Assembly: GCA_045577965.1 (NCBI GenBank)
Contig: JAZNJI010000002.1
Span: 4,323-68,322 of the forward strand
DNA from: Paludibacteraceae bacterium
GTDB taxonomy: Bacteria > Bacteroidota > Bacteroidia > Bacteroidales > Paludibacteraceae
Length of the DNA: 64,000 nt
Direction of reading: 5' to 3'
Made by a program: the position numbers and the translations under genes. Below, in pieces: positions 426 through 47,983 of this stretch. Below the pieces are notes generated by a model, which ran no database searches, was not told the origin of the DNA, and saw only the letters and a list, made by a program, of their open reading frames with translations. How positions within the stretch are numbered: the first letter of the stretch is position 1; the number at the start of each line of letters is the position of its first letter.

Positions 426-1262
426 CTATATATTTTTTACAAAATCTTCTATTGAAGTCAAATTGTAAATATTGGGAATAATATTGAATGCCTCTTGCAG
501 TTTATTTTTTGCAGATTTCCAGCCGATGCCATCAGTAATCCAAACAAATTCAAATCCGTCAACAGCATTGATTTTAGGTGCAATCTCAGAGTATGCACGA
601 GCTACCTCATTAAGTTTTGAGCCACCGCCAGAATAGAAGTTCACCTCAATCAAATATGTTTTCTGAGATGTTTCGACAACAAAGTCAAAACGCTTTTCAT
701 CTTCACCCAATGCTTGTGCCAGTGCCGGCCATTCGCTGGAATACACTTCGGTACGATAACTGACTTCATTTTCCGCGAACAAATTTGCTATTACATTCTC
801 CATCACATGACCACTACGATTTTTCCGGGCATTAGAATCAAGACCTGTTTCAACACCAAATACATAATCAACCAAATTAGTAATTTTCCGAGTCTGGAAG
901 ACATCGGCTAATCCCGTATCCGTCAAAAATTCCATTACTCCATCTACAGAATGAAACAATGTATCAAGTACGATGCTTTCACCCAATGCATTCAACACTT
1001 TCTTTTTGCCCTCACTGCGAACAGCAATCAAAATATCCATTACATTAAATGCTGTTCTATCCCGATTCCAAATCGTTTCGACAGAAGCACGCAAGTTTGT
1101 AGAACCTATCAAACAATTTAGCATACAAAGACTAAGTTTAATATTTTCAACATTGTCGTTTATCTTGCCGAAGTCGCAAAAGAAATCCAATGTTTGATTC
1201 GTTTCTTTAAGTTGTGACATGAATGTCATAAACTCTTGTGGTGTGTGTGCTGCCATCATCAT
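426..1262 (-). CDS. type II restriction endonuclease, DpnII/MboI family (GATC)
   Basis: 278 aa. The blocks NLVDYVFGVETGLDSNARKNRSG, KRFDFV, YLIEVNFYSGGGSKLNEVARAY and FVWITDGIGW match my recollection of R.DpnII. There is a 4-nt overlap with the upstream Dam-type methylase. Confidence 0.85.
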   Translation of the reverse strand: MMMAAHTPQEFMTFMSQLKETNQTLDFFCDFGKINDNVENIKLSLCMLNCLIGSTNLRASVETIWNRDRTAFNVMDILIAVRSEGKKKVLNALGESIVLDTLFHSVDGVMEFLTDTGLADVFQTRKITNLVDYVFGVETGLDSNARKNRSGHVMENVIANLFAENEVSYRTEVYSSEWPALAQALGEDEKRFDFVVETSQKTYLIEVNFYSGGGSKLNEVARAYSEIAPKINAVDGFEFVWITDGIGWKSAKNKLQEAFNIIPNIYNLTSIEDFVKNI

Positions 1263-2131
1263 GCATAATTTCTAATTAATAATTCGGTTAGTTTTCCTCG
1301 TTTTTTAGGATTGGCATTGACACTTCTTGATGCCCAAACACGAATAATTTGATATTGCATATATAGGTCATCAAAAAAGCCATCCTTACAATCGGAATTA
1401 CTCAGCATAAACCGATGCCCAGCCGCTTGTACTTGGTCACAAAAGGCCTTCAACCGTTGTTGTGCCATATCATTGAATGATTCTTTTGTGTAATCATTAA
1501 AACTACTTGTATCATTCAAAGGTCTGTAGGGAGGGTCAAAATAAAAAAATGTATTGCCTGCTGCTTGTTCCAATGTTTGGGTATAGTCTCCTGTCAGGAT
1601 TTCAACCCTTTGCAACAATTCGCTATCTGCATAAATGGTATTTGCATCGCAAATGGTTGGTGTTTCATAACGCCCAAAAGGGACATTGAAAAGACCCGAC
1701 TTGTTCACTCGGTACAATCCGTTGAAGCATGTGCGGTTCAAGAAAAAGAACAAAGTTGTATTGCGTATCGGGTCAAGTGCTTTTGTATTAAATTCAGCAC
1801 GCATCAGCATAAAGAACTCTTTCCGACTATCTTCCGAACGAAGGGAATAATATTCTTTCTGAATCTGGCTAAGAGATTCAACCAAAAGTTGTGGAAACTG
1901 CTTTACCACTTTATAACAAGTAGTCAAATCTGCGTTGATATCATTAATGACTGCCGACCGGATGTTAGAGTGCCTTTGTAACATGTGGAAGAGCATTGCT
2001 CCTCCGCCCACGAAGGGTTCAATGTAAGTGACATTCTCCCATTGGTCAAAGTCAGCTGGAAGCTTCGCTTCGAGTTGGTCAATGAGTTGCGTCTTTCCGC
2101 CTACCCACTTGACAAATGGTTTCGCTTTCAT
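1259..2131 (-). CDS. DNA adenine methyltransferase, Dam/DpnM family
   Basis: 290 aa. N-terminal VKWVGGK, AdoMet motif EPFVGGGAM and catalytic FDPPYRPL (DPPY) are present. It is translationally coupled to the REase. Confidence 0.9.
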   Translation of the reverse strand: MKAKPFVKWVGGKTQLIDQLEAKLPADFDQWENVTYIEPFVGGGAMLFHMLQRHSNIRSAVINDINADLTTCYKVVKQFPQLLVESLSQIQKEYYSLRSEDSRKEFFMLMRAEFNTKALDPIRNTTLFFFLNRTCFNGLYRVNKSGLFNVPFGRYETPTICDANTIYADSELLQRVEILTGDYTQTLEQAAGNTFFYFDPPYRPLNDTSSFNDYTKESFNDMAQQRLKAFCDQVQAAGHRFMLSNSDCKDGFFDDLYMQYQIIRVWASRSVNANPKKRGKLTELLIRNYA

Positions 2132-2155
2132 TGTTGGTATTTTTTATTACGACTG

Positions 2156-2163
2156 CAAAGGTA
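2156..2163 (-). promoter_or_regulatory. -7 box TACCTTTG for the methylase-REase operon
   Basis: Matches the Bacteroidetes TAnnTTTG consensus, 25 nt before the ATG. A TTTGCA-like -33 element lies upstream. Confidence 0.7.
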
Positions 2164-2193
2164 GTGAATTATTTTGGATTGAGCAAGAATGGT

Positions 2194-2236
2194 GCAAATA
2201 AAAATGCCATTTATGCGGATTTTGCATAAATGGCAT
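2194..2236 (-). terminator. rho-independent terminator after the fic gene
   Basis: 13-bp stem atgccatttatgc/gcataaatggcat, followed on the minus strand by TTTTTATTT. Confidence 0.75.
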
Positions 2237-2307
2237 AGGAGTTTGGCTTATAACGCTATATTAAATCTATCCTTCTGTTTTTACGTCGGGGAGCGACGGT
2301 ATGTTAG

Positions 2308-3186
2308 TTAATCTTCTTGCTCGTAGTAATACGAGTAGTCTATACCTTTCATAAAGATCTCGCGGTCGTAAATCTGGTCAGTCATCGCACCGCGGAGTAA
2401 TTCGCGGATAGCAGAACTATCAGTCGTGCTCAGGCGCATGGCTTGCAGATAAGCCTTCTTGTCTATCTGGCTCCAATCCACACATTGTTTGATAGACGAC
2501 TTGAAAATCAAATCTAACCACAAACGGGTGCTTCTGCCATTACCCTCCATAAACGGATGAGCAATATTCATCTCAACATACTTGTCCACAATCTCATCAA
2601 AAGTAGTTTGAGGCATCTGCTCAATCTGTTCCAGATTATAACGCAAGTACTCTGCACGGCAAAAGAGCGTGCCGTCTTTCCAAATGGTTTTGGTGCGAAT
2701 CTGCCCCGCGAAATCATATAATCCACCAAAGAGATAAGCGTGTACCTGTTGCAACGATAGGATAGTGCCCGCTTGCATATCATCCAATATACCGCTCTCG
2801 AACAATGTATATGCCTTCTTGCGGCTCTGTCCGTCGATAGAGTTATCGGAGTATGTGAACCAATCAAGAAAGGCGGTTATGTTCTTGCTTGACAAAGTCT
2901 TAACAACCGCTGCAATATCCTCCTGCGCGAAGCAATCCGTTGCATAGCGCTTGCCGTCAGCTGACTTTAATTTCAGTTGTATACATTTTGAATACAACTC
3001 AGCATGCGTGTCTTTTTGGCGATTCTTGACAGTTCCCCAATAGACACGTGGACGAGGGCTATTGGTGATAACTGCTACAATATCCACGATAGAGAAGTAC
3101 CACTTGTTTTGCTCTTCGTTCCAAATGGCACGCACCTCTCGGTCGTTATAGAATCGTATGGATTGTTTCATGCTCATATGTCTCAT
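2308..3186 (-). CDS. Fic/DOC family protein with N-terminal Bro-N-like domain
   Basis: Canonical Fic motif HPFMEGNGRSTRLW is present. The N terminus IRFYNDREVRAIWNEEQNKWYFSIVDIVAVI resembles Bro-N/DinD-type DNA-binding domains. The true start may be M4 or M6 (3177 or 3171). Confidence 0.85.
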   Translation of the reverse strand: MRHMSMKQSIRFYNDREVRAIWNEEQNKWYFSIVDIVAVITNSPRPRVYWGTVKNRQKDTHAELYSKCIQLKLKSADGKRYATDCFAQEDIAAVVKTLSSKNITAFLDWFTYSDNSIDGQSRKKAYTLFESGILDDMQAGTILSLQQVHAYLFGGLYDFAGQIRTKTIWKDGTLFCRAEYLRYNLEQIEQMPQTTFDEIVDKYVEMNIAHPFMEGNGRSTRLWLDLIFKSSIKQCVDWSQIDKKAYLQAMRLSTTDSSAIRELLRGAMTDQIYDREIFMKGIDYSYYYEQED

Positions 3187-3200
3187 AGACCTTTGCGGTG

Positions 3201-3208
3201 CAAAGGTA
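3201..3208 (-). promoter_or_regulatory. -7 box TACCTTTG for fic
   Basis: The context ttcactacctttgca is identical to that of the methylase promoter. Confidence 0.65.
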
Positions 3209-3395
3209 GTGAATTTTTACGAGAAAAGCAAGAAAATGGCGAAAAAATCGCCATTTTCTGTTTAGAGGGGGCAGCAGAGCTGCTGTGTAAGGTGTAGAGA
3301 AGGATTTTAAGCGGAAGCGGGAAGTGGTATGCGAACTGACAAGAAAGATAAAAGAAATTCGCCACTCATGCTCGTTGTGAACACAAATGGCGAAG

Positions 3396-3423
3396 AAAAA
3401 GGCGGGATTATGACCCGCCTTTC
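3396..3423 (-). terminator. terminator hairpin overlapping the stop of the 109-aa ORF
   Basis: aaaggcggg-attatga-cccgccttt with flanking A and T runs. Confidence 0.65.
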
Positions 3424-3737
3424 ATGTGTTTGGAGATGAAGTAACCACGGATGGTTTTCTTGGCATCGGGCTGCGAGCGTTGAGCTAAGTACTCCTGCTC
3501 TAGGACGAGCCACTCGGGCGAGCCTTTGATCAGTTCGTTGTAGGCCGTTGTTGCGGCCGTAAGGCGCAAAGTGCCTGCCTTTTCTGCTTCAGACTGGGGT
3601 TTGAGACTATAGTCACGAGGATGATTTCTGTGACCGGTGAACTGAGTGCCATGGCGTTCCATGAGCCATGTATCGCTTTGGCTGTGGAGCTTGCCATGCA
3701 TAGATTTGATAGGATCAATGTAAGTTACTTTAGACAT
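3408..3737 (-). CDS. hypothetical protein
   Basis: 109-aa ORF whose stop lies in the loop of a terminator hairpin. No family recognised. Confidence 0.45.
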   Translation of the reverse strand: MSKVTYIDPIKSMHGKLHSQSDTWLMERHGTQFTGHRNHPRDYSLKPQSEAEKAGTLRLTAATTAYNELIKGSPEWLVLEQEYLAQRSQPDAKKTIRGYFISKHMKGGS

Positions 3738-3845
3738 ATTAATTTTAGGTTAAATGTTCATAATATGGGAGACGGGACACGCGAGGCAAGACACCGTAAT
3801 GTCTGCTACTATGTAGATATGGAAATCATTCGGAAATATATGCTT

Positions 3846-3958
3846 ATGAACCCGTCATGAACCCGTAATTGATAGTTTAGGGTTTAATGGACGCCCTTTG
3901 GGATATAGGTTATAGGTGATAGGTGAGGATTACTCGGCATGTACGCCGAGGGTAGGAC
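3846..3958. repeat. word-array / mini-hairpin repeat
   Basis: atgaacccgtc atgaacccgta..., then gacgccctttggg, ataggttataggtgataggtgagg and the hairpin ctcggcatgtacgccgag. Confidence 0.8.
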
Positions 3959-3993
3959 ATACACAGGAAATTGATGAGAAAATAAAGGTGCAG

Positions 3994-4062
3994 TTTCTGC
4001 GGTTATTGCGGTTTTAGCGGTTTTTGGAAAACCGCAATAACCGCAGAAACCGCTAAAACCGC
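3994..4062. terminator. long hairpin immediately after the DUF3987-like gene
   Basis: tttctgcggttattgcggtttt (3994-4015) pairs with aaaaccgcaataaccgcagaaa (4028-4049). An alternative pairing is gcggttttagcgg/ccgctaaaaccgc. Confidence 0.7.
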
Positions 4063-5343
4063 TTATGCAATTTCATCTATTATTTTGCTATATATTCCAT
4101 GTGCAACATGTTGGATTTCATGGCAATTGATGCTTTTCTGTAGCCAGCGATCAATCGTCTTCTTACCTACTCCAAGGACTTCCGCCTGCTTCACGGCGTC
4201 TTGCTTGGTGAAGTCCGCAGGAAGCATTTCGAAGAATTGTTTTTGGATCAAGGTATGACCGATTTCTCCAGGAGCAGCGTCTTTGTTTTCGGGCAACATC
4301 TGGAACATCATCGCGGCATGCATCAGCAATTTGTGACCAATCAAGAGCATCGTCTCAAAGTCATCCTCCGAACATACTACACGCTCTGGCAGCGGTTTAG
4401 AGATATCCAATCTGAGTCCCGTGAGAATCATCCCTATGCGCTTCATAATCACAGGCATACGCTTGAGGATAGAATCAAACTCATTGCCAAAAGCATGGCG
4501 CTGCGTCTCATACATGGCTCTAAACATGCGAGTGATGGTCTTGCGCTGAGCGTCCGTCAGATAGAAGAAGCAGCTGTGTTTCGCCTTGCGCATCCAACCA
4601 TATCGATGGCTTAGTTCGCGACCCAACTGCTCATATAGGGCGATCTCTTGTGGCACAGCGTCTTCTTCTGCGTCCAACCAAACGCGGTCGTCGAAGTCTT
4701 GCGTCTGCTTGACTACATAGCAGGCGAAGCGGCTCATGAGACCATTCTCTCGGCTCTTAATCAGAGGCTTAAGCTGGTTGTACGTACCTGAGATTAAGAC
4801 GGCAAAGTGGGGGTCAGGGATCTCGATAAGCTCTTCTTGGTTCTTGCGAAGTTTGCTGATGGTCTCGTGCTCAAACATACAGCGAAGCGTGTCGGAGAAA
4901 CCGCCTGTCGTGCTGCCAAGGGCTTTGCTCAGGGTGTCAATCTCCGTGGCCATCATGATACCTCGTCCCTTGAGCATTTTTAGATAACTCATCAGTGCAG
5001 CCGAGGAGGTGTTGGCGGGCAGGAAGATAAAGTCACCATGCTCATTCTCAATGCCTTTCAGCAATTGTTTGGCGTAGTTCATGATACCTTTGCCCGAAGC
5101 TGCAGGGGCGAGCACCATGGTCATGAGTTCGGGACCATAGACATGGTGTGGGAAGCCGTGGTACATACGCATGGCGGGCAGGGCGTAGGCATAATTGGTT
5201 AATAACGAAAGCAATAGCATGTCGCGCATCTCGCCCTCTGGGGCAATGCTGATGGCTTTCTCGACTTGCCAAGGGAGTTGTCCTTGGCGTAAATGGGTGG
5301 TGATGAGGGTGTCTGCACCCTCGGAAGAAATTAAGTTGGACAT
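4063..5343 (-). CDS. DUF3987-like P-loop protein with C-terminal HTH (mobile-element associated in Bacteroidetes)
   Basis: 426 aa. Walker-A-like LAPAASGKGIMNY is present, and the C terminus VLGVGKKTIDRWLQKS looks like an HTH. The overall layout recalls the DUF3987/VirE-associated proteins of Bacteroides integrative elements. Confidence 0.6.
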   Translation of the reverse strand: MSNLISSEGADTLITTHLRQGQLPWQVEKAISIAPEGEMRDMLLLSLLTNYAYALPAMRMYHGFPHHVYGPELMTMVLAPAASGKGIMNYAKQLLKGIENEHGDFIFLPANTSSAALMSYLKMLKGRGIMMATEIDTLSKALGSTTGGFSDTLRCMFEHETISKLRKNQEELIEIPDPHFAVLISGTYNQLKPLIKSRENGLMSRFACYVVKQTQDFDDRVWLDAEEDAVPQEIALYEQLGRELSHRYGWMRKAKHSCFFYLTDAQRKTITRMFRAMYETQRHAFGNEFDSILKRMPVIMKRIGMILTGLRLDISKPLPERVVCSEDDFETMLLIGHKLLMHAAMMFQMLPENKDAAPGEIGHTLIQKQFFEMLPADFTKQDAVKQAEVLGVGKKTIDRWLQKSINCHEIQHVAHGIYSKIIDEIA

Positions 5344-5649
5344 AAATTTAAATGGTTAAGGTTATTATTATATATAAGGTGTACCTCTCAATAGGCAACC
5401 TGAAGATCGCTCTTCACTCCTATATACACAAGAAATCAAAAAAACTGTACTTCTTTCACAATTTTTATATTATTTTTGTTTCAAAAAAAATTTTAGATAA
5501 TTTTAGATAATTTACTACAATTTTGGAAGTAAAAGGAGATTATTCATATCTCTACTTATATTATACCCAAAAAGCTAAAAATGTTTACGTTTTTTTTACT
5601 ATTTTGATAAAAAATTTAATTTTTGTAAAGTCGAAGTAGCAAAATAAGA

Positions 5650-5727
5650 GTATTGAGTGTAGAGTTTAGAAGACAGGAATACCTACAGGACGGCTACGCC
5701 TACGGTTTAGGATGTAAAGGATAGAGG
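5650..5727. repeat. word-array / mini-hairpin repeat
   Basis: gtattgagtgtagagtttag...cctacaggacggctacgcctacggtttaggatgtaaaggatagagg. It shares ctacaggacggc..cgcctac with 9013-9036. Confidence 0.75.
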
Positions 5728-5751
5728 AATGGCAAGTAACATCCCATAAAA

Positions 5752-8133: not shown

Positions 8134-9195
8134 ATGAAACGAAATATAGCCATTATAGCAGGAGGAGATAGCTCCGAATACGAGGTATCGCTGCGTAGCG
8201 CAGCGGGCATAGAGTCTTTTCTTGCTGACCAACAACAATACACCACTACCATCGTTCTCCTACAAGGTAACGATTGGAAAGCAAAAGTAAGCGAAAACGA
8301 GTGGGCTGAGATAGATAAGAATGATTTTTCGTACACCTACAACGGAGTTAAGCACAGCTTTGACTTCGCCTATATCACCATCCACGGCACACCCGGCGAG
8401 AATGGCGTACTGCAGGGCTACCTGGACATGATTGGTCTCCCCTACTCTTGCTGCGGTGTTTTGGCAGCTGCCATGACCTTCAATAAATACACTTGTAATC
8501 ACTATTTGAAGGGCTTTGGTATAAAAGTGGCGGAGAGTGTTTTGCTGCGCAAAGAGGCGATGAGGCGATTAGGCGATAAGGCGATAGGCGAAGATATTAT
8601 TGAGCAAGTGGGATTACCATGCTTCATTAAGACCAATGTGGGTGGTTCGTCCTTCGGTGTGACCAAAGTGAAGACCTTGGAGGAAGTGAAGCCTGCTATT
8701 GAGAAAGCATTTGCAGAAGGCGATGAGGTGATTTGCGAGGCATTTATGAAGGGTATTGAAATCACTTGCGGCGCATATAAGACCAAAGACAAAGCGGTTG
8801 CCTTTCCTATTACTGAAGTAGTGACTAGCAACGAGTTCTTTGATTACGATGCCAAATACAATGGTCAGGTGGACGAAATCACCCCTGCACGCATACCTGA
8901 TGAAGTACGCGATGCGGTGCAAGCCATGACATTGAAGATCTACGATATCCTCGGCTGCAAAGGCATTATTCGTGTGGATTATATATTAACTAGTTTAGAG
9001 GACGGCACTAAGTGCCTACAGGACGGCTGCGCCTACAGTTTAGAGGCGAAAGGCATGGAGATTAACCTCCTAGAGGTGAATACCACACCAGGTATGACCG
9101 CTACCTCCTTCATCCCACAGCAAGTGCGCGCAGCAGGATTGAATATTGGCCAGGTACTGAGTGAAATTATAGAGGACGCCGCAGAGCGGCTATAG
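8134..9195 (+). CDS. ddl: D-alanine--D-alanine ligase
   Basis: MKRNIAIIAGGDSSEYEVSLRSA, ATP-grasp blocks and LLEVNTTPGMTATSFIPQQ are present. The start was chosen 27 nt after a TAATTTTG box; the track start at 8077 lies in the promoter. Confidence 0.9.
   Translation: MKRNIAIIAGGDSSEYEVSLRSAAGIESFLADQQQYTTTIVLLQGNDWKAKVSENEWAEIDKNDFSYTYNGVKHSFDFAYITIHGTPGENGVLQGYLDMIGLPYSCCGVLAAAMTFNKYTCNHYLKGFGIKVAESVLLRKEAMRRLGDKAIGEDIIEQVGLPCFIKTNVGGSSFGVTKVKTLEEVKPAIEKAFAEGDEVICEAFMKGIEITCGAYKTKDKAVAFPITEVVTSNEFFDYDAKYNGQVDEITPARIPDEVRDAVQAMTLKIYDILGCKGIIRVDYILTSLEDGTKCLQDGCAYSLEAKGMEINLLEVNTTPGMTATSFIPQQVRAAGLNIGQVLSEIIEDAAERL
8554..8593 (+). repeat. possible in-frame word array inside ddl
   Basis: gaggcgat gaggcgat taggcgat aaggcgat aggcgaag encodes ..EAMRRLGDKAIGE.. 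in a linker that is shorter in the Ddl sequences I remember. Confidence 0.55.
8991..9056 (+). repeat. in-frame word-array/mini-hairpin insertion inside ddl
   Basis: 66 nt: agtttagaggacggcactaagtgcctacaggacggctgcgcctacagtttagaggcgaaaggcatg. It encodes SLEDGTKCLQDGCAYSLEAKGM just before the conserved LLEVNTTPG, and near-identical units occur in intergenic DNA at 9196-9221 and 5692-5717. Confidence 0.8.
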
Positions 9196-9296
9196 GACGG
9201 CACAAAATGCCTACAGGACGCTTGCGAGCGAGCTATAGGACGCGCTGATGGCGCTATAGGTTAAAGGTTAAAGGTTAGAGGCAAAAGGCGAGAGGC
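9172..9296. repeat. word-array / mini-hairpin repeat (includes the last codons of ddl)
   Basis: gaggacgccgcagagcggctatag gacggcacaaaatgcc tacag gacgcttgcgagcgagc tatag gacgcgctgatggcgc tatagg ttaaaggttaaaggttagaggcaaaaggcgagagg. Confidence 0.85.
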
Positions 9297-9297
9297 T

Positions 9298-10233
9298 ATG
9301 GATATAAATAAAGAGATACTTAATCTGGATTGGAAGCGTGAGCCATATGGCTTGTACGAACCTATCGAATATACCTTGGCGGCAGGCGGCAAGCGCGTGC
9401 GCCCACAGTTGGCGATGATTGCTAGTCAGATGTTTGGAGGCAAAGATGAAGAAGTGCTGCCTGCGGCATTGGCCTTGGAGGTATTCCATAACTTCACTCT
9501 CCTGCACGACGATGTGATGGACAAAGCGGATGTGCGTCGTAGTCGTCCAACCGTACATGTCAAGTGGAACGAGAACACCGCCATCCTGTCGGGTGATCAA
9601 ATGGTGATTGAAGCATACAAGTTGCTATCGGGTGTTCCCACCGACAAACTGCCAAAAGTATTGCAACTCTTCAACAAAATGGCGACAGAGATATGCGAGG
9701 GGCAGCAATACGATGTGGATTTTGAGAGTCAGGAGCACGTAACCATAGAAGAGTATCTCAAAATGATTCGTCTGAAAACCTCCGTACTACTAGCCAATGC
9801 ACTGCAAACAGGAGCATATATTGCTGGTGCAGATGATCAAGCACAAGAAACTCTGTATCAATTTGGTATCAACATCGGACTAGCCTTTCAAATACAAGAT
9901 GATATCCTAGATGTATGGGGCGACCCTAAAACATTCGGAAAAGCCGTTGGAGGTGATATCAGTTGCAATAAGAAGACGTTTGTATATCTAGAGGCGAAAA
10001 GGCGAGGAGGCGAGAGGCTAGAAGAATGGTACAGTCAAGTGCTAGAAGACAATACGGAGAAGATTGCAGCTGTAAAAGAGATATTTGAGCAACTAGAAGT
10101 GCGTGCGGTGTGCGAAAAGGTGGTTGAAGATTATACTCAAAAAGCACTTGCATTACTGGACCAACTACCTCAAAACGAAGCTACTGAGCAATTGCGTCAG
10201 CTTGCCAATAAACTCACCACCCGAAAGGATTAA
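9298..10233 (+). CDS. polyprenyl diphosphate synthase (short/medium chain, FPP/GGPP-type)
   Basis: First Asp-rich motif LLHDDVMDKADVRR and second motif QIQDDILDV are present. Confidence 0.85.
   Translation: MDINKEILNLDWKREPYGLYEPIEYTLAAGGKRVRPQLAMIASQMFGGKDEEVLPAALALEVFHNFTLLHDDVMDKADVRRSRPTVHVKWNENTAILSGDQMVIEAYKLLSGVPTDKLPKVLQLFNKMATEICEGQQYDVDFESQEHVTIEEYLKMIRLKTSVLLANALQTGAYIAGADDQAQETLYQFGINIGLAFQIQDDILDVWGDPKTFGKAVGGDISCNKKTFVYLEAKRRGGERLEEWYSQVLEDNTEKIAAVKEIFEQLEVRAVCEKVVEDYTQKALALLDQLPQNEATEQLRQLANKLTTRKD
9989..10021 (+). repeat. array-like segment inside the polyprenyl synthase gene
   Basis: tagaggcgaaaaggcgaggaggcgagaggctag resembles the aggcgaaaggcga words at 9280-9296 and 33904-33939. 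It is unclear whether this is an insertion or a replacement. Confidence 0.4.
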
Positions 10234-26965: not shown

Positions 26966-27511
26966 ATGAATACACCAGAGCAATTTGATATTGTGGCAGG
27001 TAAATGCCGCCGCATATATGGCCTCAAGATGAAGGACTACGGACCTAGTTGGCGCATTATGCGTCCACAAACGGTCAACGATCAACTATTTATCAAAGCC
27101 AAACGTGTTCGCGAGATTGAGCTAACAGGCGTCAACATGGTAGGCGAAAGCATCGAAGGAGAAATGATGGCTATCGTCAATTATAGCATCATCGGACTCA
27201 TCCAATTGCACGAGGGATTTGCCGATTCTGTAGATATGACCGCTGAGCGAGCTATTGAGCTATACGATCACTATATGGCAGAGGCTAAGGCGCTGATGCT
27301 CAAGAAGAATCACGACTACGGAGAAGCATGGCGTGATATGTTTGCATCCAGCCTAACGGATATCATCCTCACCAAGATTAATCGCAATAAGTCCATTACT
27401 GCCAACGATAATCAGACGCTGATTTCCGAAGGGGCAGATGGCAATTATTTCGACATGCTCAACTATGCAGTATTTTACCTCATAAAAGTAATGGAAAATG
27501 AAACGCGCTAA
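26966..27511 (+). CDS. DUF1599-like protein
   Basis: 181 aa. The call rests on the recalled Bacteroidales arrangement DUF1599 - DoxX-like membrane protein - tpiA. Confidence 0.55.
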   Translation: MNTPEQFDIVAGKCRRIYGLKMKDYGPSWRIMRPQTVNDQLFIKAKRVREIELTGVNMVGESIEGEMMAIVNYSIIGLIQLHEGFADSVDMTAERAIELYDHYMAEAKALMLKKNHDYGEAWRDMFASSLTDIILTKINRNKSITANDNQTLISEGADGNYFDMLNYAVFYLIKVMENETR

Positions 27512-28646
27512 AACTATCATGGCCGCTTTCAGTCGTACGCTGTTGGGCCTAGTATTTATCTTCTCAGGAGCGGTTAAGGCGATTGATCCTCTGGGAACGG
27601 TTTATAAAATTGAGGACTACCTCAAAGCTTTCGGTGGATTCTTCACCGACTTATTACCTGCAGCGGAAGCAGCAGCATGGATCTTAATCATACTGGAACT
27701 GATGCTTGGAGTATGCATGGTATTAAATGTTCGTACAAAATGGACATCATGGATTGCACTACTATTCTACTGCGTAATGACTCCGCTAACGCTATATATC
27801 GCTCTCACCAACCCGGTGAGTGATTGCGGATGCTTTGGTGATGCGATTGTATTAACCAATTGGCAAACATTCTGGAAGAATGTCGTACTAATTATTTTGG
27901 CTATCCTATTAGTAATCTTGCGCAAAAGCACACGTCCACTCTGGCGTGGATGGATGGAACTAGTGATTGCCGCTACTACTATCGCTGCTGCTATCTCCTT
28001 CATGACATGGACAAAACAACATTTGCCAATCGCGGATTTTCGCCCATATAAAGTTGGTAATCACCTGCCTACCATTATGGAGGATTACGAACCAGATCAA
28101 TACGAATATACGTATATTTGTGCGAAAGATAGTATCGAACAGGCATTTACTGCTGAAAATTATCCGGATAGCACATGGACCCTCGTTCGCTACGAGTCCA
28201 AACTGATCAAGAAGGGGTACGATTCGCCTATTCACGATCTAGAGATCATCAACACATACGGGGATGATCTTACATGGGATATCCTAGAGAGCGAAGAGCC
28301 TGTGACGCTGGTCATCATGTACGACCTAACTAAAACAGATAAATCACAAATGGCGAAGGTAGAGGCATTGTATAGCAGCCTAGCACAATCCTATACCACC
28401 CCTGTAGATACTATACAATCCGACACAACACTATACGATACTACACCAGATTATACCACACCTTTCTATATCATCACAGGTTCTAGCGACGAGGTAAGCA
28501 CATTTGCCCAGGAATACCCTACATTGGGCGAATGCATTTGTACGTGCGACCCTGTCACTTTGAAGACTATTGTACGCGCAAACCCAGGTGTGATTGTCCT
28601 ACAAAATGGTACCGTCATTGACAAATATAATATCAGGAATAGATAA
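27498..28646 (+). CDS. DoxX-domain membrane protein with C-terminal extracytoplasmic domain (BT_3928-like)
   Basis: Four N-terminal TM helices are present. 14-nt overlap with the upstream gene. It carries an in-frame word array at 28386-28462. Confidence 0.6.
   Translation: MKRAKTIMAAFSRTLLGLVFIFSGAVKAIDPLGTVYKIEDYLKAFGGFFTDLLPAAEAAAWILIILELMLGVCMVLNVRTKWTSWIALLFYCVMTPLTLYIALTNPVSDCGCFGDAIVLTNWQTFWKNVVLIILAILLVILRKSTRPLWRGWMELVIAATTIAAAISFMTWTKQHLPIADFRPYKVGNHLPTIMEDYEPDQYEYTYICAKDSIEQAFTAENYPDSTWTLVRYESKLIKKGYDSPIHDLEIINTYGDDLTWDILESEEPVTLVIMYDLTKTDKSQMAKVEALYSSLAQSYTTPVDTIQSDTTLYDTTPDYTTPFYIITGSSDEVSTFAQEYPTLGECICTCDPVTLKTIVRANPGVIVLQNGTVIDKYNIRNR
28386..28462 (+). repeat. in-frame G-poor word array inside the DoxX-like gene
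   Basis: caatcctataccacccctgtagatactatacaatccgacacaacactatacgatactacaccagattataccacacc encodes QSYTTPVDTIQSDTTLYDTTPDYTTP. Confidence 0.7.
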
Positions 28647-29450: not shown

Positions 29451-29640
29451 GCAAACGAAGTTTGCGTAAATGGTCGCTCATGAGCGATGAATGATGGCTA
29501 AGGCGACAGTGGCAGCAGGGCTGCGAAAATGGCTCAAGCGTGATAACGTGAAACCACTTTCGCGAGCGTAGCGAGCCATAAACGCAAAGCCACTTTCGTG
29601 AGCGCAGCGAACCATGAACGTGAGCAAAGCGAACAAAGAT
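29451..29640. repeat. word-array / hairpin repeat downstream of tpiA
   Basis: The palindrome tcgctcatgagcga is followed by repeated (aaatgg/cacttt/catgaa)+cgtgagcg.agcga units. A 33-nt block is about 90 percent identical to 49355-49387. Confidence 0.85.
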
Positions 29641-33000: not shown

Positions 33001-33168
33001 TTGTTGTAGCGCTGTGTAGCGGTTGTGTAGTAGCGCTGCGCGCTGTGTAGCAGTTGTGTAGGGTTGTGTAGCAGTTGTTATTCTAGGATTCCATCCTATA
33101 CCACTCTATACCACCCTATACCATGCTATACCATCCTACACCATCCTATACCATCCTACACCATCCCC
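33001..33168. repeat. inverted word arrays (gtgtag words, then ctatacc/ctacacc words) with hairpin agcgctgcgcgct
   Basis: A C-poor half (33001-33090) is followed by a G-free half (33095-33168), between the kinase and peptidase genes. Confidence 0.85.
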
Positions 33169-34202
33169 CTCTGGGCGACCTCTGCCGCCTCCACATTCGG
33201 CAGACAGTCCAGATGATAGCATTTCACATGCGTGATCACGTGCTTGATGCTCTCGTACATGCAGTCGGCCATCTGTCGGTCCATTTTCAGTCCCGACGCC
33301 GATGACAGCATATACGCATATGCCTCTGGCAGTGAGAGGATTCGCATCTTATTATGCGGTGCCTGACTCAGTTTGATGATTCCTCCTACGCGTGCGCACG
33401 CATTCTTGTAGCAAGGTGTCTTGCCGCTCCATGGCGAACCATAGACGCGCACTTCACCGTCCTCCATCACGCGCAAGATTGGATTGTCGTCGTTGAGCAG
33501 CCATGCGTCATCGAAGGCCGCCAACCACTGCCGCGCATGCGTGGACTTACCCGTCCCGCTATGCCCCAAAAACAAGTACCCTTTCGCCTCGTCCCTCACC
33601 ACCACCGCAGCGTGCATCTCTAGGGTCATCAGTGGGGCGGTGCGGAAAGCAAATAGCAGCATCAGCGCATTGTCGATGCAGAACCTAACATCCTGACAAT
33701 CAGGCATTATGTATAGCACACCTTCCGTAAAATTCTCACTACATTCCATCTCGCAGCAGATAGGCGCGTTGGCCACCATCGCCACGCGGAACAACCAAGT
33801 GTGTGGTATAGGGTTGTTTAGGGTTGTATAGGATTGTGAAGAGTGGTACACTTCGATCCTAGGCATATCTTCCTCTGCATTATCGGTCAGCACATGGGTC
33901 CACTCCTCGCCTATTTGCCTTTCGCCTTTCGCCTCTTCCATTTCCACGCTGAGCGTGAAGATAGGAGTTGAATGCTTCTCGCATTCCATATCTTTGTCGC
34001 GGCAGGGAGTTCTTATCTCACTTTCGTTCGAACGATCTGCTTCGCCGTACGATTGCCGCGAAATGTTGTCTATATTGTCGTTGTTATTTATCTCCACGGC
34101 AAATGGCAGATAATTCGTCATACATGACAACAGCGCACCGTCGCTGCATTCCACAGCGAACAGATGCTCCGCTACGCGGTAGTATGTACGACTAAACGCC
34201 AT
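33156..34202 (-). CDS. HPr-kinase-like P-loop kinase (HprK-related)
   Basis: YLFLGHSGTGKSTHARQW P-loop within an HprK C-terminal-like fold. The start MAFSRTYYRV lies 21 nt after a TACTTTTG box. It contains two in-frame word arrays. Confidence 0.7.
   Translation of the reverse strand: MAFSRTYYRVAEHLFAVECSDGALLSCMTNYLPFAVEINNNDNIDNISRQSYGEADRSNESEIRTPCRDKDMECEKHSTPIFTLSVEMEEAKGERQIGEEWTHVLTDNAEEDMPRIEVYHSSQSYTTLNNPIPHTWLFRVAMVANAPICCEMECSENFTEGVLYIMPDCQDVRFCIDNALMLLFAFRTAPLMTLEMHAAVVVRDEAKGYLFLGHSGTGKSTHARQWLAAFDDAWLLNDDNPILRVMEDGEVRVYGSPWSGKTPCYKNACARVGGIIKLSQAPHNKMRILSLPEAYAYMLSSASGLKMDRQMADCMYESIKHVITHVKCYHLDCLPNVEAAEVAQRGMV
33801..33850 (-). repeat. in-frame word array inside the HprK-like gene
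   Basis: Plus strand gtgtggtatagggttgtttagggttgtataggattgtgaagagtggtaca encodes ..YHSSQSYTTLNNPIPHT.. on the minus strand. Confidence 0.7.
33904..33939 (-). repeat. in-frame word array inside the HprK-like gene
   Basis: Plus strand tcctcgcctatttgcctttcgcctttcgcctcttcc encodes ..EEAKGERQIGEE.. on the minus strand. Confidence 0.65.
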
Positions 34203-34222
34203 TGTGCAGTTGAAATTTTCTG

Positions 34223-34230
34223 CAAAAGTA
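34223..34230 (-). promoter_or_regulatory. -7 box TACTTTTG for the kinase-peptidase-PqqD-NTase operon
   Basis: 21 nt before ATG 34202. No room for an upstream ORF. Confidence 0.7.
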
Positions 34231-34304
34231 GCAAAAAATACGCACATACGCAAATAAATTCAAAGAAACTCTCATTTTCCTTTGCATATTTGCAAAAAAA
34301 GCCG

Positions 34305-39882: not shown

Positions 39883-39915
39883 CACCACAACCGCTCACTC
39901 TGGGCGGTTGTGGTG
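39883..39915 (+). repeat. conserved cassette hairpin, copy 1
   Basis: caccacaaccgc-tcactctgg-gcggttgtggtg. The 3' flank ttagtccactctttcagaaaaaa is shared with copy 2. Confidence 0.85.
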
Positions 39916-39976
39916 TTGTTAGTCCACTCTTTCAGAAAAAATAAGCCCAATAGTTGCATATTTCAAAAAAAAACAT

Positions 39977-39984
39977 TACCTTTG
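39977..39984 (+). promoter_or_regulatory. -7 box TACCTTTG, cassette 1
   Basis: Preceded by ttgcatatttcaaaaaaaaa, directly after hairpin copy 1. Confidence 0.7.
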
Positions 39985-40034
39985 CAGCGAAAATCTGTAG
40001 CATGATACAAAAATATTAAATAAAACTATGTTTT

Positions 40035-40166
40035 ATGAGTGCAACCGATTACTTAAATAATGCACAAGAGTGGTTAGCTCAGCAATCTCAAAGAACGATT
40101 GATTACCAATGGGAGATTCAGCATCACAACCAAATGCACAAAGCCTACGAAACCTCACTAGTATAA
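40035..40166 (+). CDS. possible 43-aa protein (cassette 1)
   Basis: Manual translation gives MSATDYLNNAQEWLAQQSQRTIDYQWEIQHHNQMHKAYETSLV. It starts 51 nt after a TACCTTTG box and is followed by conserved hairpin copy 2. Confidence 0.25.
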   Translation: MSATDYLNNAQEWLAQQSQRTIDYQWEIQHHNQMHKAYETSLV

Positions 40167-40202
40167 AGCCATCATTCTACTACACACCATTTGATATTCC
40201 AT

Positions 40203-40234
40203 CTCACAACCGTTCTCTCAGGGCGGTTGTGGTG
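40203..40234 (+). repeat. conserved cassette hairpin, copy 2
   Basis: ctcacaaccg-ttctctcagg-gcggttgtggtg, followed by tttagtccactctttcagaaaaaa. Confidence 0.85.
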
Positions 40235-40326
40235 TGTTTAGTCCACTCTTTCAGAAAAAAACATATCGAATAATACTAAATTGCATAAATTTTGTACAAT
40301 AATTTTCAAATTTCAAAAATTTATTG

Positions 40327-40334
40327 TATCTTTG
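40327..40334 (+). promoter_or_regulatory. -7 box TATCTTTG, cassette 2
   Basis: 28 nt before the DUF4160-like ATG. Confidence 0.7.
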
Positions 40335-40361
40335 CAAGCGAAAACAAGAAAATAACATGCC

Positions 40362-40652
40362 ATGCCTAAAGTTCTACAGTATATTACTGCTTATTTTACT
40401 TGGGTTTTTCTCTTCTACGGAACAGATGTCAACGAGAATCGTGCTCATGTACATGTCGGTAAACGTGGCGTAGATAAATTTTGTAAAATTTGGTTAGAAC
40501 CGTTTATTAGTATCGCGGATGCTGGCGATTTAACTCTATCGCAACAAAAGCAAGTTTTACAAATTGTTGAGGAGCAACAAGATAAACTATTGAAGCAATG
40601 GGCATTATTCAAAGAGGGGAAACCTATTAAAATGTTAACCATTAAACGCTAA
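40362..40652 (+). CDS. DUF4160-like protein
   Basis: 96 aa. The N terminus with the NENRAHVHVGKRG His-rich block resembles DUF4160. It is paired with a DUF2442-like gene 7 nt downstream. Confidence 0.55.
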   Translation: MPKVLQYITAYFTWVFLFYGTDVNENRAHVHVGKRGVDKFCKIWLEPFISIADAGDLTLSQQKQVLQIVEEQQDKLLKQWALFKEGKPIKMLTIKR

Positions 40653-40659
40653 TATAACT

Positions 40660-40923
40660 ATGTGTAAAGTAGAAGGATATTGGAATATTACTCCAAAAAT
40701 CAAATGTGTATCTTTCCCTATCCGTGGAAAGATGTCTGTAAAGTTGGAAGATGGTCGTGTGATTATTGTTCCTCTTTCTTCGTTTCCATCCATAAAAAAG
40801 GTTCCTGTCAAGGACCGCTCTAAATGGTATTTAATGGGCGGTGGAGTGACATGGGATAGTTGTCCTGAAGTTATTCATATTGAGCAGATATTAGGTAATT
40901 ATCAGAATTATCAACACGAGTAA
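40660..40923 (+). CDS. DUF2442-like protein
   Basis: 87 aa. VKLEDGRVIIVPLSSFPSIKKVPVKDRSKWYLMGGGVTWDSCPEVIHIEQIL fits the DUF2442 pattern as I recall it. Confidence 0.6.
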   Translation: MCKVEGYWNITPKIKCVSFPIRGKMSVKLEDGRVIIVPLSSFPSIKKVPVKDRSKWYLMGGGVTWDSCPEVIHIEQILGNYQNYQHE

Positions 40924-40985
40924 AAACTGCGTTTCTCCACGCAATCACAAAAACCTGTGCACACCACAGATCTTATAACCCCATC

Positions 40986-41016
40986 CCACAACCGCTCACT
41001 CTGGGCGGTTGTGGTG
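40986..41016 (+). repeat. conserved cassette hairpin, copy 3
   Basis: ccacaaccgc-tcactctgg-gcggttgtggtg, followed by tttttagga. Confidence 0.85.
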
Positions 41017-41090
41017 TTTTTAGGAGTAGCACTTTGTGAAATAATAGGCACTTATTTTATATAACACTTGCATATTTCATTTTTTTTCTG

Positions 41091-41098
41091 TACTTTTG
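41091..41098 (+). promoter_or_regulatory. -7 box TACTTTTG, cassette 3
   Basis: Preceded by cttgcatatttcatttttttt, 30 nt before ATG 41128. Confidence 0.7.
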
Positions 41099-41127
41099 CA
41101 CGGATTTTGTAGATTAATTATTAGACT

Positions 41128-41343
41128 ATGAATACACAAACATTAAACTTTACCATATTCTGTATTGGTAATGTAGCAGAATATCTCAAGATAAATGCCC
41201 GCGATGTATATCATAAAATGCAACAAGCGGACATGATATCTTCTTATATCGTGCCATGCTACGATGTCCTACATTCATTCTCTAAAGAATATATCGTCGA
41301 GGATCTTGTTAACCACATGAAGCAGAAAGGAGTATTACAATGA
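41128..41343 (+). CDS. DUF3791-like small protein
   Basis: 71 aa. It overlaps the downstream DUF3990-like gene by 4 nt, and a paralogous small ORF follows that gene. Confidence 0.5.
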   Translation: MNTQTLNFTIFCIGNVAEYLKINARDVYHKMQQADMISSYIVPCYDVLHSFSKEYIVEDLVNHMKQKGVLQ

Positions 41344-41813
41344 TTACTCTTTATCACACATCCAATCAAGAAGTGCCACAACCTGATGTTCTGCATTCTA
41401 GACAGCACCTCGACTTCGGACGAGGTTTCTACCTAACACCTATCTACGAACAAGCTAAGAAATATGGCGAACGCTTCTTACGCAAAGGCGAAGAAGCATA
41501 CATCAATGTGTATGAACTCGACGAAGATTTAACTGGCTTTACCAAAAAAGTATTTGAGCAATACGACAATCAATGGTTGGATTTTGTTACTGCTTGCAGA
41601 AAAGGACATGACCATCCTCACTATGACATTATAGAAGGAGGTATTGCAGATGACCAAGTGTTCAACACTATAGATTTGTATTTTGCAGGAATATACACTT
41701 ATGAACAAGCCCTTGATCAACTGCGCTACAAGAAACCCAATCATCAGATGTGTATAACAAATGCTAATCTTCTAAAAGAGAAATTACATTTTATTGAATC
41801 GATCAAACTTTAA
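41340..41813 (+). CDS. DUF3990-like protein with PARP/ART-like H-Y-E signature
   Basis: 157 aa. LYHTS (His), GRGFYLT (Tyr) and DIIEGGIADD (Glu) occur in the order and spacing typical of H-Y-E ADP-ribosyltransferases. Confidence 0.55.
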   Translation: MITLYHTSNQEVPQPDVLHSRQHLDFGRGFYLTPIYEQAKKYGERFLRKGEEAYINVYELDEDLTGFTKKVFEQYDNQWLDFVTACRKGHDHPHYDIIEGGIADDQVFNTIDLYFAGIYTYEQALDQLRYKKPNHQMCITNANLLKEKLHFIESIKL

Positions 41814-41818
41814 CTACT

Positions 41819-42028
41819 ATGGAAGCTAATCCGATTATTCTTCAACAGAAATACGCACGTATTGTACAATTGTTCGCAAATAAAGCCGGTTATTCATATG
41901 AGCAAGCGTTGGGAATGTTCTACGACTCCAAAACTTTTGAATTAATCAGCGAAGGAGTAGCTGATATGCATTGCCTAAGCGATGAATACCTCGCTGACGA
42001 ACTCTGCATTGAATATAATATCCACTAG
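41819..42028 (+). CDS. DUF3791-like small protein (second copy)
   Basis: 69 aa. It begins 5 nt after the DUF3990-like gene and is followed by conserved hairpin copy 4. Confidence 0.5.
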   Translation: MEANPIILQQKYARIVQLFANKAGYSYEQALGMFYDSKTFELISEGVADMHCLSDEYLADELCIEYNIH

Positions 42029-42053
42029 ACATCAAAACTCTTTGAACTTATCT

Positions 42054-42083
42054 CCCAACCGCTCACTCAGGGCGGTTGTGGTG
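42054..42083 (+). repeat. conserved cassette hairpin, copy 4
   Basis: cccaaccgc-tcactcagg-gcggttgtggtg, followed by tgtttagga. The left arm is 2 nt shorter. Confidence 0.8.
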
Positions 42084-42100
42084 TGTTTAGGAATATACTG

Positions 42101-42138
42101 CGTGATTGAGTGATGAGTGATAAACTATGAGTGATGAG
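42101..42138. repeat. word array (C-poor)
   Basis: cgtgattgagtgatgagtgataaactatgagtgatgag. Confidence 0.7.
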
Positions 42139-43638: not shown

Positions 43639-43642
43639 GCTT

Positions 43643-43716
43643 GGTGTAGAATGGTATAGGATAGTATAGAAGTGGTATAGGATGGTATAGAATAGTATAG
43701 AAGTGGTATAGGATGG
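43643..43716. repeat. C-free word array upstream of four-helix-bundle gene 1
   Basis: ggtgtagaatggtataggatagtatagaagtggtataggatggtatagaatagtatagaagtggtataggatgg. Confidence 0.9.
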
Positions 43717-44117: not shown

Positions 44118-44251
44118 ACCACCCTATACAACCCTACACAGCGCGAAGCGCTACTAAACAACCCTATACAATACTACACAGCGCAAAGCGCTACTAAACA
44201 ACCCTAAACAACCCTACACAACCCTATACAACCCTATACAACCCTATACAA
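44103..44251. repeat. G-free word array with two GCGAAGC-type mini-hairpins downstream of four-helix-bundle gene 1
   Basis: ccctataca/ccctacaca words plus agcgcgaagcgct and agcgcaaagcgct. It runs up to the frr ATG. Confidence 0.9.
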
Positions 44252-47827: not shown

Positions 47828-47910
47828 CCCATATCTATAACCTATAGCCCAAAGGGCGTCCTATAGGCGCCTCGCGCCGTCCTATAGCGGCTCTGCCGCG
47901 TCCTCTAAAC
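47828..47910. repeat. word-array / mini-hairpin repeat
   Basis: ccatatctataacctatagcccaaagggcgtc ctataggcgcctcgcgccgtc ctatagcggctctgccgcgtcc tctaaac. It is an inverted match to 3890-3916. Confidence 0.85.
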
Positions 47911-47983
47911 TAAAAAATGCACTTTTCCACAAAAAAAGTGCATTTTTTCTTACATACTGACAAGTTTTAGCAGTTTGACGCAG

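Follow-up and report, generated by a model that had tools for sequence, protein, structure and literature searches.

How does DNA that recurs in non-coding spacers come to lie, in frame, inside the gene of an essential enzyme? This question is raised by ddl, the gene of the essential cell-wall enzyme D-alanine--D-alanine ligase (Ddl), in a 64,000-nt stretch of contig JAZNJI010000002.1 from a Paludibacteraceae bacterium (order Bacteroidales; assembly GCA_045577965.1). The whole stretch is called the window, and all positions refer to it; comparison loci carry L numbers and metagenome Ddl proteins carry P numbers. An earlier inspection of the sequence (the original prediction) had proposed that a 22-residue segment of Ddl is a repeat unit inserted in the open reading frame (ORF). 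Our analysis indicates that the segment is probably a copy of a repeat of this Paludibacteraceae lineage resembling repetitive extragenic palindromes (REPs), which lies in frame in ddl, is read by the ribosome and is tolerated by the protein.

The in-frame segment of ddl and its copies in the window

The ddl ORF scored 348 bits against the NCBIfam equivalog model NF002527 (cutoff 310), its protein matched Ddl structures in the PDB at E ~1e-40, and the frame was intact with all conserved Ddl motifs kept. The 22-residue peptide SLEDGTKCLQDGCAYSLEAKGM is coded by positions 8992-9057, between VDYILT and EINLLEVNTTPGMT; the interval 8991-9056 originally assigned to it begins one base early, base 8991 being the third base of a Thr codon outside the peptide-coding segment. 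In the protein, the junctions read ILT/SLEDG... upstream and ...AKGME/INLLEVNTTPGMT downstream. Together with the next codon, the 22 codons amount to 69 nt, which take the place of 12 native nt. One frame of the segment is open, and the remaining two hold two stops each. Since the direct repeats at the segment ends (AGTTTAGAGG at 8992 and 9037) are also present in the intergenic paralogs, they belong to the element. The terminal inverted repeats and target-site duplication of a miniature inverted-repeat transposable element were not found at this site, where the ends are direct repeats and 12 native nt are replaced. From the reading frame, the avoidance of stops in every allele and the intact catalytic motifs, we infer that the segment is translated. 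The gene, the parts of the segment and the other copies of the family are as follows.

8134-9195, plus strand: ddl, D-alanine--D-alanine ligase, 353 aa (NF002527, PDB matches, structural model), host of three array-derived segments
8992-9060, plus strand: in-frame repeat segment, 69 nt, SLEDGTKCLQDGCAYSLEAKGME, in place of the ancestral 12 nt (EGWT), as judged from its sequence, from orthologs and alleles and from the other copies
8992-9003, plus strand: head of the segment, AGTTTAGAGGAC
9004-9016, plus strand: hairpin 1, GGCAC-TAA-GTGCC
9016-9024, plus strand: constant module, (C)TACAGGAC
9025-9033, plus strand: hairpin 2, GGC-TGC-GCC
9034-9046, plus strand: TACAGTTTAGAGG
9047-9060, plus strand: 7-mer tail, CGAAAGG CATGGAG
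5663-5730, plus strand: intergenic paralog with the layout of the ddl segment, i.e. head AGTTTAGAAGAC, degenerate unit, CTACAGGAC, hairpin GGC-TAC-GCC, TACGGTTTAGGA and 7-mer tail
9170-9297, plus strand: array that closes ddl and fills the spacer up to the polyprenyl synthase ATG, with four TA[GCT]AGGAC-plus-hairpin units, then heptamers TTAAAGG/TTAGAGG/CAAAAGG/CGAGAGG
47856-47912, minus strand: intergenic paralog in opposite orientation, TAGTTTAGAGGAC plus three hairpin units, forming inverted repeats with the ddl tail

As had been claimed, the in-frame segment recurs in non-coding DNA. Unit 1 of the segment (8996-9026) was identical to 9191-9221 at 27/31 positions, unit 2 (9016-9045) to 5683-5712 at 26/30, and the head (8992-9003) to 5663-5674 at 11/12. 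The best local alignment of the segment elsewhere in the window, which was to the copy at 5663-5730, reached a score of 55, whereas 100 dinucleotide shuffles scored 24.05 +/- 1.9 with a maximum of 29. The motif CTAYAGGACG was counted 8 times in the window versus 0.18 times expected. Four copies of the family are thus spread over the 64 kb, at 5663-5730, 8992-9060, 9170-9297 and, on the minus strand, 47856-47912; the last is placed between recA and a terminator-like hairpin 3' of a nitroreductase gene and has an orthologous copy in metagenome locus L132.

The end of ddl is itself array sequence, another point on which the original prediction held. The last codons, EDAAERL (9172-9192), and the TAG stop (9193-9195) form the first unit of the array 9170-9297, and positions 9170-9200 equal the reverse complement of 47876-47906 apart from a stem swap, GCCGC/GCGGC to GCGGC/GCCGC, which on sequence grounds is a compensatory change. 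In other genomes the spacer between ddl and the polyprenyl synthase gene measures 2-12 nt (L005 and L009) or holds different array classes.

The element is a dispersed, non-coding, modular repeat, i.e. a head-to-tail array of mini-hairpins parted by a conserved 9-mer. Its grammar comprises a head, (A)GTTTAGAGGAC, followed by units, by the end CTAYAG(T/G)TTAGAGG and often by a tail of AGG-ending 7-8-mers, the tail repeats including TTAAAGG, TTAGAGG, GGCGAAA and GGCGATGA. Each unit consists of the constant 9-mer CTAYAGGAC and a variable GC-rich mini-hairpin of the form G-(4-6 bp stem, ~3 nt loop)-C. Elements are 45-105 nt and units 16-21 nt long, and all units are arranged head-to-tail with a spacing of ~21 nt. 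Among 124 unique inter-module segments, taken from both the window and metagenome loci, 60% had an end-anchored stem of at least 4 bp, versus 1.8% of shuffles; these segments held 32 distinct stems, with loops mostly of 3 nt. On the complementary strand, every hairpin is preceded by CTRTAG (GTAG if Y = C) and followed by CGTC, each of which overlaps with the outermost pair of the stem; roughly one unit in two has ATAG as its tag.

Several other descriptions of the element were considered and rejected. The picture of one long palindrome was dropped because RNA folding of the segment and three paralogs was no better than that of shuffles (z from -1.4 to +0.2; ddl segment z = -0.43) and only local hairpins of 4-6 bp were seen. 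An intein or intron was ruled out by the small size and the lack of motifs, a CRISPR-like array by the palindromic nature of the variable parts and the lack of cas genes, and a diversity-generating retroelement by the lack of a reverse transcriptase and by changes that are in length and not A-specific substitutions. A search of the window with Rfam at gathering thresholds gave no match.

Orthologs, alleles and structural setting

The nearest genomes to the window are uncultured Paludibacteraceae metagenome-assembled genomes from ruminant and other animal guts, with protein identities of 91% for L001 and 86% for L002. In most of these, as well as in Bacteroides, Phocaeicola and Paludibacter, the focal site comprises four residues (EGWT, EGWK, EGDK or EGDV) coded by non-repetitive DNA such as GAGGGTTGGACN, and E. 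coli DdlB has only DGQFY. Bacteroides-type Ddl proteins are 324-328 aa long (118 proteins from a profile search). As the original prediction had stated, Ddl homologs are short at this site, and the alignment of Bacteroidales orthologs contained no homologous segment. By this comparison, the ancestral state at the focal site is evidently four residues and the segment is derived.

The 120 closest Ddl proteins displayed EGWT, GD[EK]AKGERLE, SLEAKGEEAKGME, SLEDGSAYSLEARGME, the window form or longer (AKGDE)n forms at the site. At the DNA level, no array was present in L081, a head and 7-8-mers only in L082, one hairpin unit in L083, two units in the window, L115 and L108, and two units with longer tails in L085 and L084. 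Hairpin units number 0, 1 or 2 per allele and tail units 2-7, and every length difference is a multiple of 3. Junctions of unit differences between alleles fall in the constant modules, as is expected from slippage between direct repeats, while L084 and L085, in which a head of the window type is followed by a tail and 3' flank of the L001 type, suggest recombination inside the array. Comparison of these alleles shows that the ddl copy is lineage-specific and varies in whole-unit steps, always in frame, and that insert-free alleles exist. The Ddl proteins span 328-393 aa although their backbones are only 1-4% apart. A further metagenome Ddl, P0077 (464 aa), has a ~140-residue internal duplication of the central domain, which may be a genuine tandem duplication or may result from misassembly.

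The insert-free EGWT allele (P0037/L081) showed a 1.1% amino-acid difference outside the variable sites, in a lineage 10-20% diverged in DNA. A reading as within-species (strain-level) polymorphism was dropped because the nearest DNA alleles are 78-91% identical to the window, which corresponds to a species complex. The insert-free allele that had been anticipated thus exists, although in the species complex and not between strains; as far as the aligned alleles show, presence/absence polymorphism holds within this complex, with Ddl backbones 1-4% apart in amino acids. Between the window and four alleles, the insert was 97.3% identical (248/255) versus 88.4% (1521/1720) for flanking ddl (Fisher p = 1.6e-6). 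The insert may be younger than the lineages, homogenised with other copies, or nucleotide-constrained.

In sister species, unrelated arrays occupy the same codon position: GGCGATGA 8-mers in L007 and L014 (GDEAMRRE...), CAGTGGT-type 7-mers in L015 and KAKSDRFE in L006. Independent arrays at the focal codon were recorded in L001-3, L006, L007, L014 and L015. This raises the question of whether anything was imported into ddl at all, or whether native purine-rich DNA slipped in place to give a coding variable-number tandem repeat (VNTR), with the likeness to intergenic arrays reflecting a shared mutational bias. The several array classes at one codon would agree with such local growth, as would the tails, which are simple 7-8-mer tandem units of allele-variable number, and the native site GAGGGTTGGAC, which resembles some array units; strain-level change in copy number was also seen in another array, with 0, +2 or +3 units after a PF05635 gene. 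Tandem units and in-frame copy-number variation between alleles are indeed features of a coding VNTR. However, its units should derive from local native sequence, and here the same head and modules are found in unrelated genes and spacers: the head, the 9-nt modules and the head-unit-tail layout recur at 5663, 9170 and 47856 and in Mfd, Rho and TilS-like genes. Moreover, the whole 5-bp stem of unit 1 is common to a unit of the downstream array, and slippage makes no new palindromes. We therefore regard purely local growth as very unlikely.

Metagenome assembly is the source of the window and of most of its relatives, and assemblers may be misled by short repeats, so that repeat reads mis-assembled into ddl, or a decaying ddl pseudogene, had to be weighed as well. 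We find this explanation scarcely credible, since the same insert with small variations was present in ~30 independent protein clusters, which stem from numerous samples and assemblers, and in two further contigs found by DNA pattern (L108, L115). In addition, the ORF is intact with complete motifs, exceeds the equivalog cutoff and is in frame in every allele.

To locate the segment in the protein, structures were predicted with AlphaFold2 (AF2). With close homologs alone the model had a pLDDT of 52; when 60 Bacteroides-type sequences were added, pLDDT reached 71 and pTM 0.72. Foldseek matched the model to solved Ddl, VanA and VanG structures (TM 0.67-0.77, probability 1.00). In the model, the segment is flanked by strands 278-287 (IIRVDYILTS) and 308-316 (EINLLEVNT) of the C-terminal domain and may thus form the surface loop expected by the original prediction, and residues 290-304 of the segment have pLDDT below 50 and no predicted secondary structure. 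On the flanking strands lie D282, E314 and N316, which an alignment to DdlB equates with E. coli D257 and E270/N272, the Mg2+ ligands of that enzyme. As modelled, the segment is an excursion at the far end of a beta-hairpin whose base forms part of the active site.

Catalytic residues lie just 4-5 positions away on each side of the site, which could point to an adaptive addition, in which a two-cysteine loop regulates Ddl (as a redox switch, through a protein contact or by inhibitor escape) and hypervariability reflects diversifying selection. The enzyme also carries four hypervariable sites on backbones 1-4% apart, namely the focal one, one after residue 52, residues 143-151 and the C-terminus, all differing in array content. 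However, this DNA also occurs in non-coding spacers and at least ten unrelated proteins, the peptide varies by whole DNA units, and the Cys-containing unit is absent from L083 and P0015. Sister species have unrelated peptides at the site, insert-free alleles persist, the region is predicted to be disordered, and Ddl is cytoplasmic. An adaptive origin is thus extremely unlikely in our judgement. The insert is most likely a neutral or slightly costly passenger sequence, and we infer that it is tolerated through its location at the tip of the hairpin.

Origin and spread of the repeat

The occurrence of the family in other proteins was assessed by scanning metagenome contigs for the exact pattern GTTTAGAGGACG-N(8-14)-CTAYAGGAC, which gave 56 matches in 52 contigs. 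Nineteen of the 56 were in sense ORFs, each open for 150 nt or more to either side, and one was in an antisense ORF; nearly all in-ORF matches were in the phase that reads xLEDxxxxLQD. According to Pfam, the hosts were Mfd/TRCF (seven contigs, two sites), Rho, a TilS-like PP-loop ATPase, NlpC/P60, a YgiQ-like radical SAM protein, MatE, a UvrD-like helicase, a PD40 propeller, a CarboxypepD_reg protein and Ddl. Judged by these translated contigs, the family is shown to occur in frame in at least ten unrelated protein families. In seven contigs the head provides the last residues and the TAG stop of the gene 5' of an IspH-like gene (identified by its N-terminal sequence only).

As the way of spread, we favour templated copying between arrays combined with slippage. 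A purine-rich 7-8-mer array (GGCGAWR type, present alone in L001-3 and L082) would first have formed at the hairpin turn. Hairpin units would then have been copied in from another array by means of the GTTTAGAGG motif that both contain; template switching or ectopic gene conversion could have done this, and for unit 1 a likely donor is the array 180 nt downstream. Slippage between constant modules, together with intra-array recombination between alleles, would account for later changes, and selection would keep only in-frame, stop-free versions on the presumably solvent-facing hairpin tip. This route is suggested by the replacement rather than interruption of native codons, by L082 with head and tail but no hairpin unit, by the best matches of units 1 and 2 at different loci, and by the occurrence of the complete stem of unit 1 in a unit of the downstream array, 180 nt away. 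We consider this order of events, with the 7-8-mer array first and the hairpin units copied in, plausible but tentative.

Alternatively, the element may be a true miniature mobile element, a REP-like hairpin array cut and pasted or copied by a hairpin-recognising, single-strand-specific HUH tyrosine transposase (RAYT/TnpA_REP) encoded elsewhere, with the ddl copy as one insertion. The GC hairpins with conserved flanks recall this group, CTRTAG (GTAG) and CGTC being the two tags of the REP superfamilies (PMC3733652), and like REPs the copies are dispersed in both orientations and mostly between co-directional genes. The insert is also younger than its flanks if their identities (97.3% versus 88.4%) are taken at face value. 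Subclass 2.6 of TnpA_REP in Bacteroidetes has been tied to "atypical secondary structures" copied around the genome (PMC6006769), which is a lead and not evidence. However, neither a Pfam scan of the ~50 window ORFs nor a crude motif search of the related loci turned up such a gene. The stems are not conserved (32 variants) and, at 4-6 bp, are shorter than in typical REPs; strictly head-to-tail units are rare for REPs, and roughly half of the units carry ATAG as the tag. Likewise, native codons are replaced and not interrupted, and the head and tail of L082 flank no hairpin unit. We thus think a transposase-driven insertion rather unlikely.

Several points weigh against our own reading of the segment as a tolerated, copied repeat. 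No donor-recipient event was caught, and the case for copying is built on mosaic similarity together with the replacement of native codons. Neither a transposase nor a reverse transcriptase was identified by Pfam in the ~50 window ORFs that had not already been identified, nor was an HUH-Y1-like motif found in ~750 kb of related loci by a crude regular expression, although such an enzyme could still be encoded elsewhere in the genome. Translation of the segment and activity of the insert-bearing Ddl are presumptive, as is the solvent-facing position of the tip, and the structural model is only of moderate confidence. Nucleotide-level constraint instead of recent copying could lower the divergence of the insert. 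Finally, template switching alone is insufficient to explain unrelated array classes at one codon in sister species, for which a local mutational hot spot or a scarcity of tolerant sites would also be needed.

A further arrangement of arrays was seen at genes of PF05635 (S23p/Avd-like; 23S rRNA intervening-sequence protein, a four-helix bundle), all four of which were flanked by inverted arrays of one class:

43642-44251 of the window: putative PF05635 cassette
62307-62829 of the window: putative PF05635 cassette
L129, ~5054-5434, minus strand: putative PF05635 cassette
L137, 162-587: putative PF05635 cassette

The flanking pairs were TGGTATAGGA and CCTATACAAC, TAGTTCAA and TTGAACCA, GGTAGTGT and ACACTACC, and the GTTTAGAGGAC-hairpin family on both sides. 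These units look like gene cassettes with terminal inverted arrays, and their layout recalls the S23p-bearing intervening sequence of 23S rRNA (PMC4990558). Only two PF05635 genes beyond those of the window were found in 137 loci, and arrays far outnumber them. One window gene was always in a tkt-IVP-leuS context (23 contigs read), and this fixed context gives no sign of recent movement; for the other PF05635 protein of the window, an exact protein lookup gave no match. The TTGAAC 10-mer array after the PF05635 gene of the tkt-IVP-leuS context (62763-62842) differed by 0, +2 or +3 units in L138-L145, where the gene DNA is 96-99% identical, so that copy number changes close to the strain level. 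It is conceivable, although improbable, that the arrays are made and spread by an active, undescribed process and not by passive drift of old repeats. This process, maybe tied to PF05635 cassettes, would write constant 9-10-nt modules parted by newly made palindromes and overwrite loops of essential proteins as well as intercistronic spacers throughout the genome. If true, such array writing would amount to a novel kind of bacterial selfish DNA, or to a "loop-rewriting" mechanism, among gut Bacteroidales.

The original prediction had likened the segment to the Rickettsia palindromic element (RPE), which the passages on it in PMC10969869 and PMC3733652 describe as a dispersed repeat in frame in housekeeping genes and also intergenic (Ogata et al. 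2000), the RPE-1-type elements being long palindromes of ~100-150 bp. The likeness holds in so far as a dispersed non-coding family has many copies in frame in unrelated housekeeping genes and others between genes, and adds a family-typical peptide (here xLEDxxxxLQD) while the host protein is not destroyed. It fails for the long palindrome and for insertion between native codons: the element here has head-to-tail units in copies of 45-105 nt with no global fold, its copy number varies among close lineages, and native codons are replaced. Furthermore, the host is a free-living gut Bacteroidales and not an obligate intracellular alphaproteobacterium. Sequence homology to RPEs is not expected; the Rickettsia-like reading is supported by analogy and not by membership. 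Overall, the original prediction is confirmed in what it observed, and its reading holds in essence.

REPs are stem-loops of 20-40 bp with stems of 6-13 bp (5 bp in one family), a short loop and a GTAG or CGTC tag; each family has a conserved stem, and units are mostly single or inverted (HH/TT) dimers (Di Nocera et al. 2013; PMC3733652). Intragenic copies that occur in groups code for 20-30 residues, and the ends of REPs give TAG stops to neighbouring ORFs (PMC3733652). The present element has in common with them small GC-rich stem-loops, short loops, conserved and apparently unpaired flanking bases and complementary stem changes; it lies mostly between co-directional or convergent genes, and its ends supply TAG stops to upstream ORFs (in ddl at 9193-9195). 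In contrast to REPs, its stems are of 4-6 bp and occur in at least 32 variants, the conserved part being the 9-nt spacer; the units are strictly head-to-tail with a period of ~21 nt and 7-8-mer tails, the tag is partly conserved (GTAG or ATAG), and no RAYT was found among the ~50 window ORFs (Pfam) or in the crude scan of related loci. By the tests run, the element is not a member of the RPE or REP family.

Two further kinds of repeat resemble parts of the element. Cyanobacterial STRR and the TAACTGA repeats of Beggiatoaceae are intergenic heptanucleotide direct repeats (PMC4679880). Similarly, 7-mer tails (TTAAAGG, TTAGAGG, GGCGAAA) fill spacers up to start codons here, with many copies per genome, but the 7-8-mers are also found in frame in ddl, the polyprenyl synthase gene and other genes, and are linked with hairpin units. 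Coding minisatellites and low-complexity inserts in housekeeping proteins are known from Plasmodium falciparum and other organisms, where they arise by local slippage of the host's own biased sequence. In-frame, unit-wise length variation in surface loops (here presumed ones) of conserved enzymes is common to both systems, whereas the hairpin modules studied here are found at unrelated loci. No description of these arrays in Bacteroidales was found in the literature.

Rickettsia is the best-known example of housekeeping genes invaded in frame by non-coding repeats, and intragenic REPs provide sparser ones; the same phenomenon would here be seen in an abundant, free-living lineage of gut and rumen Bacteroidales. 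With many natural alleles of one essential enzyme, several independent events at one codon and at least ten further host proteins, the case is tractable. It may serve as a natural experiment on the foreign loop load that an ATP-grasp enzyme tolerates beside its active site, on how short repeats move or get copied, and on how repeats inflate protein diversity in metagenome catalogues.

Further arrays and repeats in the window

Arrays of short units are widespread in the window. They were present in 24 of the 38 intergenic gaps of at least 25 nt (periods of 7, 8, 9, 10, 11 and ~21 nt), often span the full spacer from stop to start, mainly between co-directional genes, and are mostly absent from divergent promoter regions. 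Arrays in frame in genes other than the focal site, and a second one in ddl, were the following.

8554-8591, plus strand: second in-frame ddl array, (GAGGCGAT)x4.9, 8-nt units with 90% matches (Tandem Repeats Finder), encoding EAMRRLGDKAIGE
9990-10022: AGGCGA-type array LEAKRRGGERLE in frame in polyprenyl synthase (ORF 9298-10233), replacing the ancestral helix-loop ALETADAESKAEL
46823-46866: array (CTACACAACA)x4.4 in the RsgA/YjeQ GTPase (46127-47119), reading LHNTTQHYTTLHNTT just ahead of the DTPG motif
46616-46657: second array of RsgA/YjeQ, TCGCC(T/C)AA, reading SPDSPIAQSPNHLI
50090-50111 and 50535-50574: 14-residue in-frame CTACAC-type array (NNTTPHYTILHHTT) and CCAATA-type stretch in an FAD-dependent protein like PDB 3NLC (49439-51031)

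The second ddl array had been noted as a possible array at 8554-8593 and proved to be a tandem array of 8-nt units. It codes for residues 143-151 and stands in place of the ancestral loop, K/QGQSISDEDV. Elsewhere, this loop consists of GGCGAAA/GGTTARA, CCAATAT or CAAGAAC arrays, and outgroups have a non-repetitive loop of 10 residues. AKGERL-like peptides are the direct translation of spacer heptamers (GCAAAAGGCGAGAGGCTA, 9281-9298).

The polyprenyl synthase array varies in length and class between lineages (L004, L081, L083, L085, L014), by up to +25 residues in L014. At a different site of the same enzyme, the more distant Bacteroidales L025 and L030 have another in-frame tandem repeat (…NHSSSIEGKHSSIEEKHSSSIDGKHSSS…), and in-frame repeat growth is therefore not confined to the lineage of the window. 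Both RsgA arrays are insertions relative to the PDB homolog 1U0L. For annotation, these cases are a warning: in this clade, repeat read-through often accounts for loop inserts, start-proximal extensions and C-terminal tails.

Two more ORFs hold array-like sequence in frame, as seen in the window sequence only: a MauE/DoxX-domain protein (ORF 27498-28646) with DTIQSDTTLYDTT at 28408-28443, and an unannotated ORF on the minus strand (33156-34247) with EAKGERQIGE and SQSYTTLNNPIP at 33806-33837 and 33907-33934. Another family, with 22-46-nt units and small hairpins (e.g. GGCGGCAAAGCCGC, CACTTTCGTGAGC), is common to 29501-29633 and 49272-49452, where it occupies the spacers 5' of the FAD protein gene and ORF 29642. 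A ~56-nt repeat with the hairpin CACAACCGC-N-GCGGTTGTGG was found in four copies at 39886-42109, between small ORFs (DUF4160, DUF3990) in a gene-poor stretch of 3.3 kb; this may be a set of small gene cassettes parted by terminator-like repeats. Positions 426-5343 resemble an accessory island, with a DpnII endonuclease, a D12 adenine methyltransferase, a Fic protein and a DUF3987 protein, then arrays at 3846-4062.

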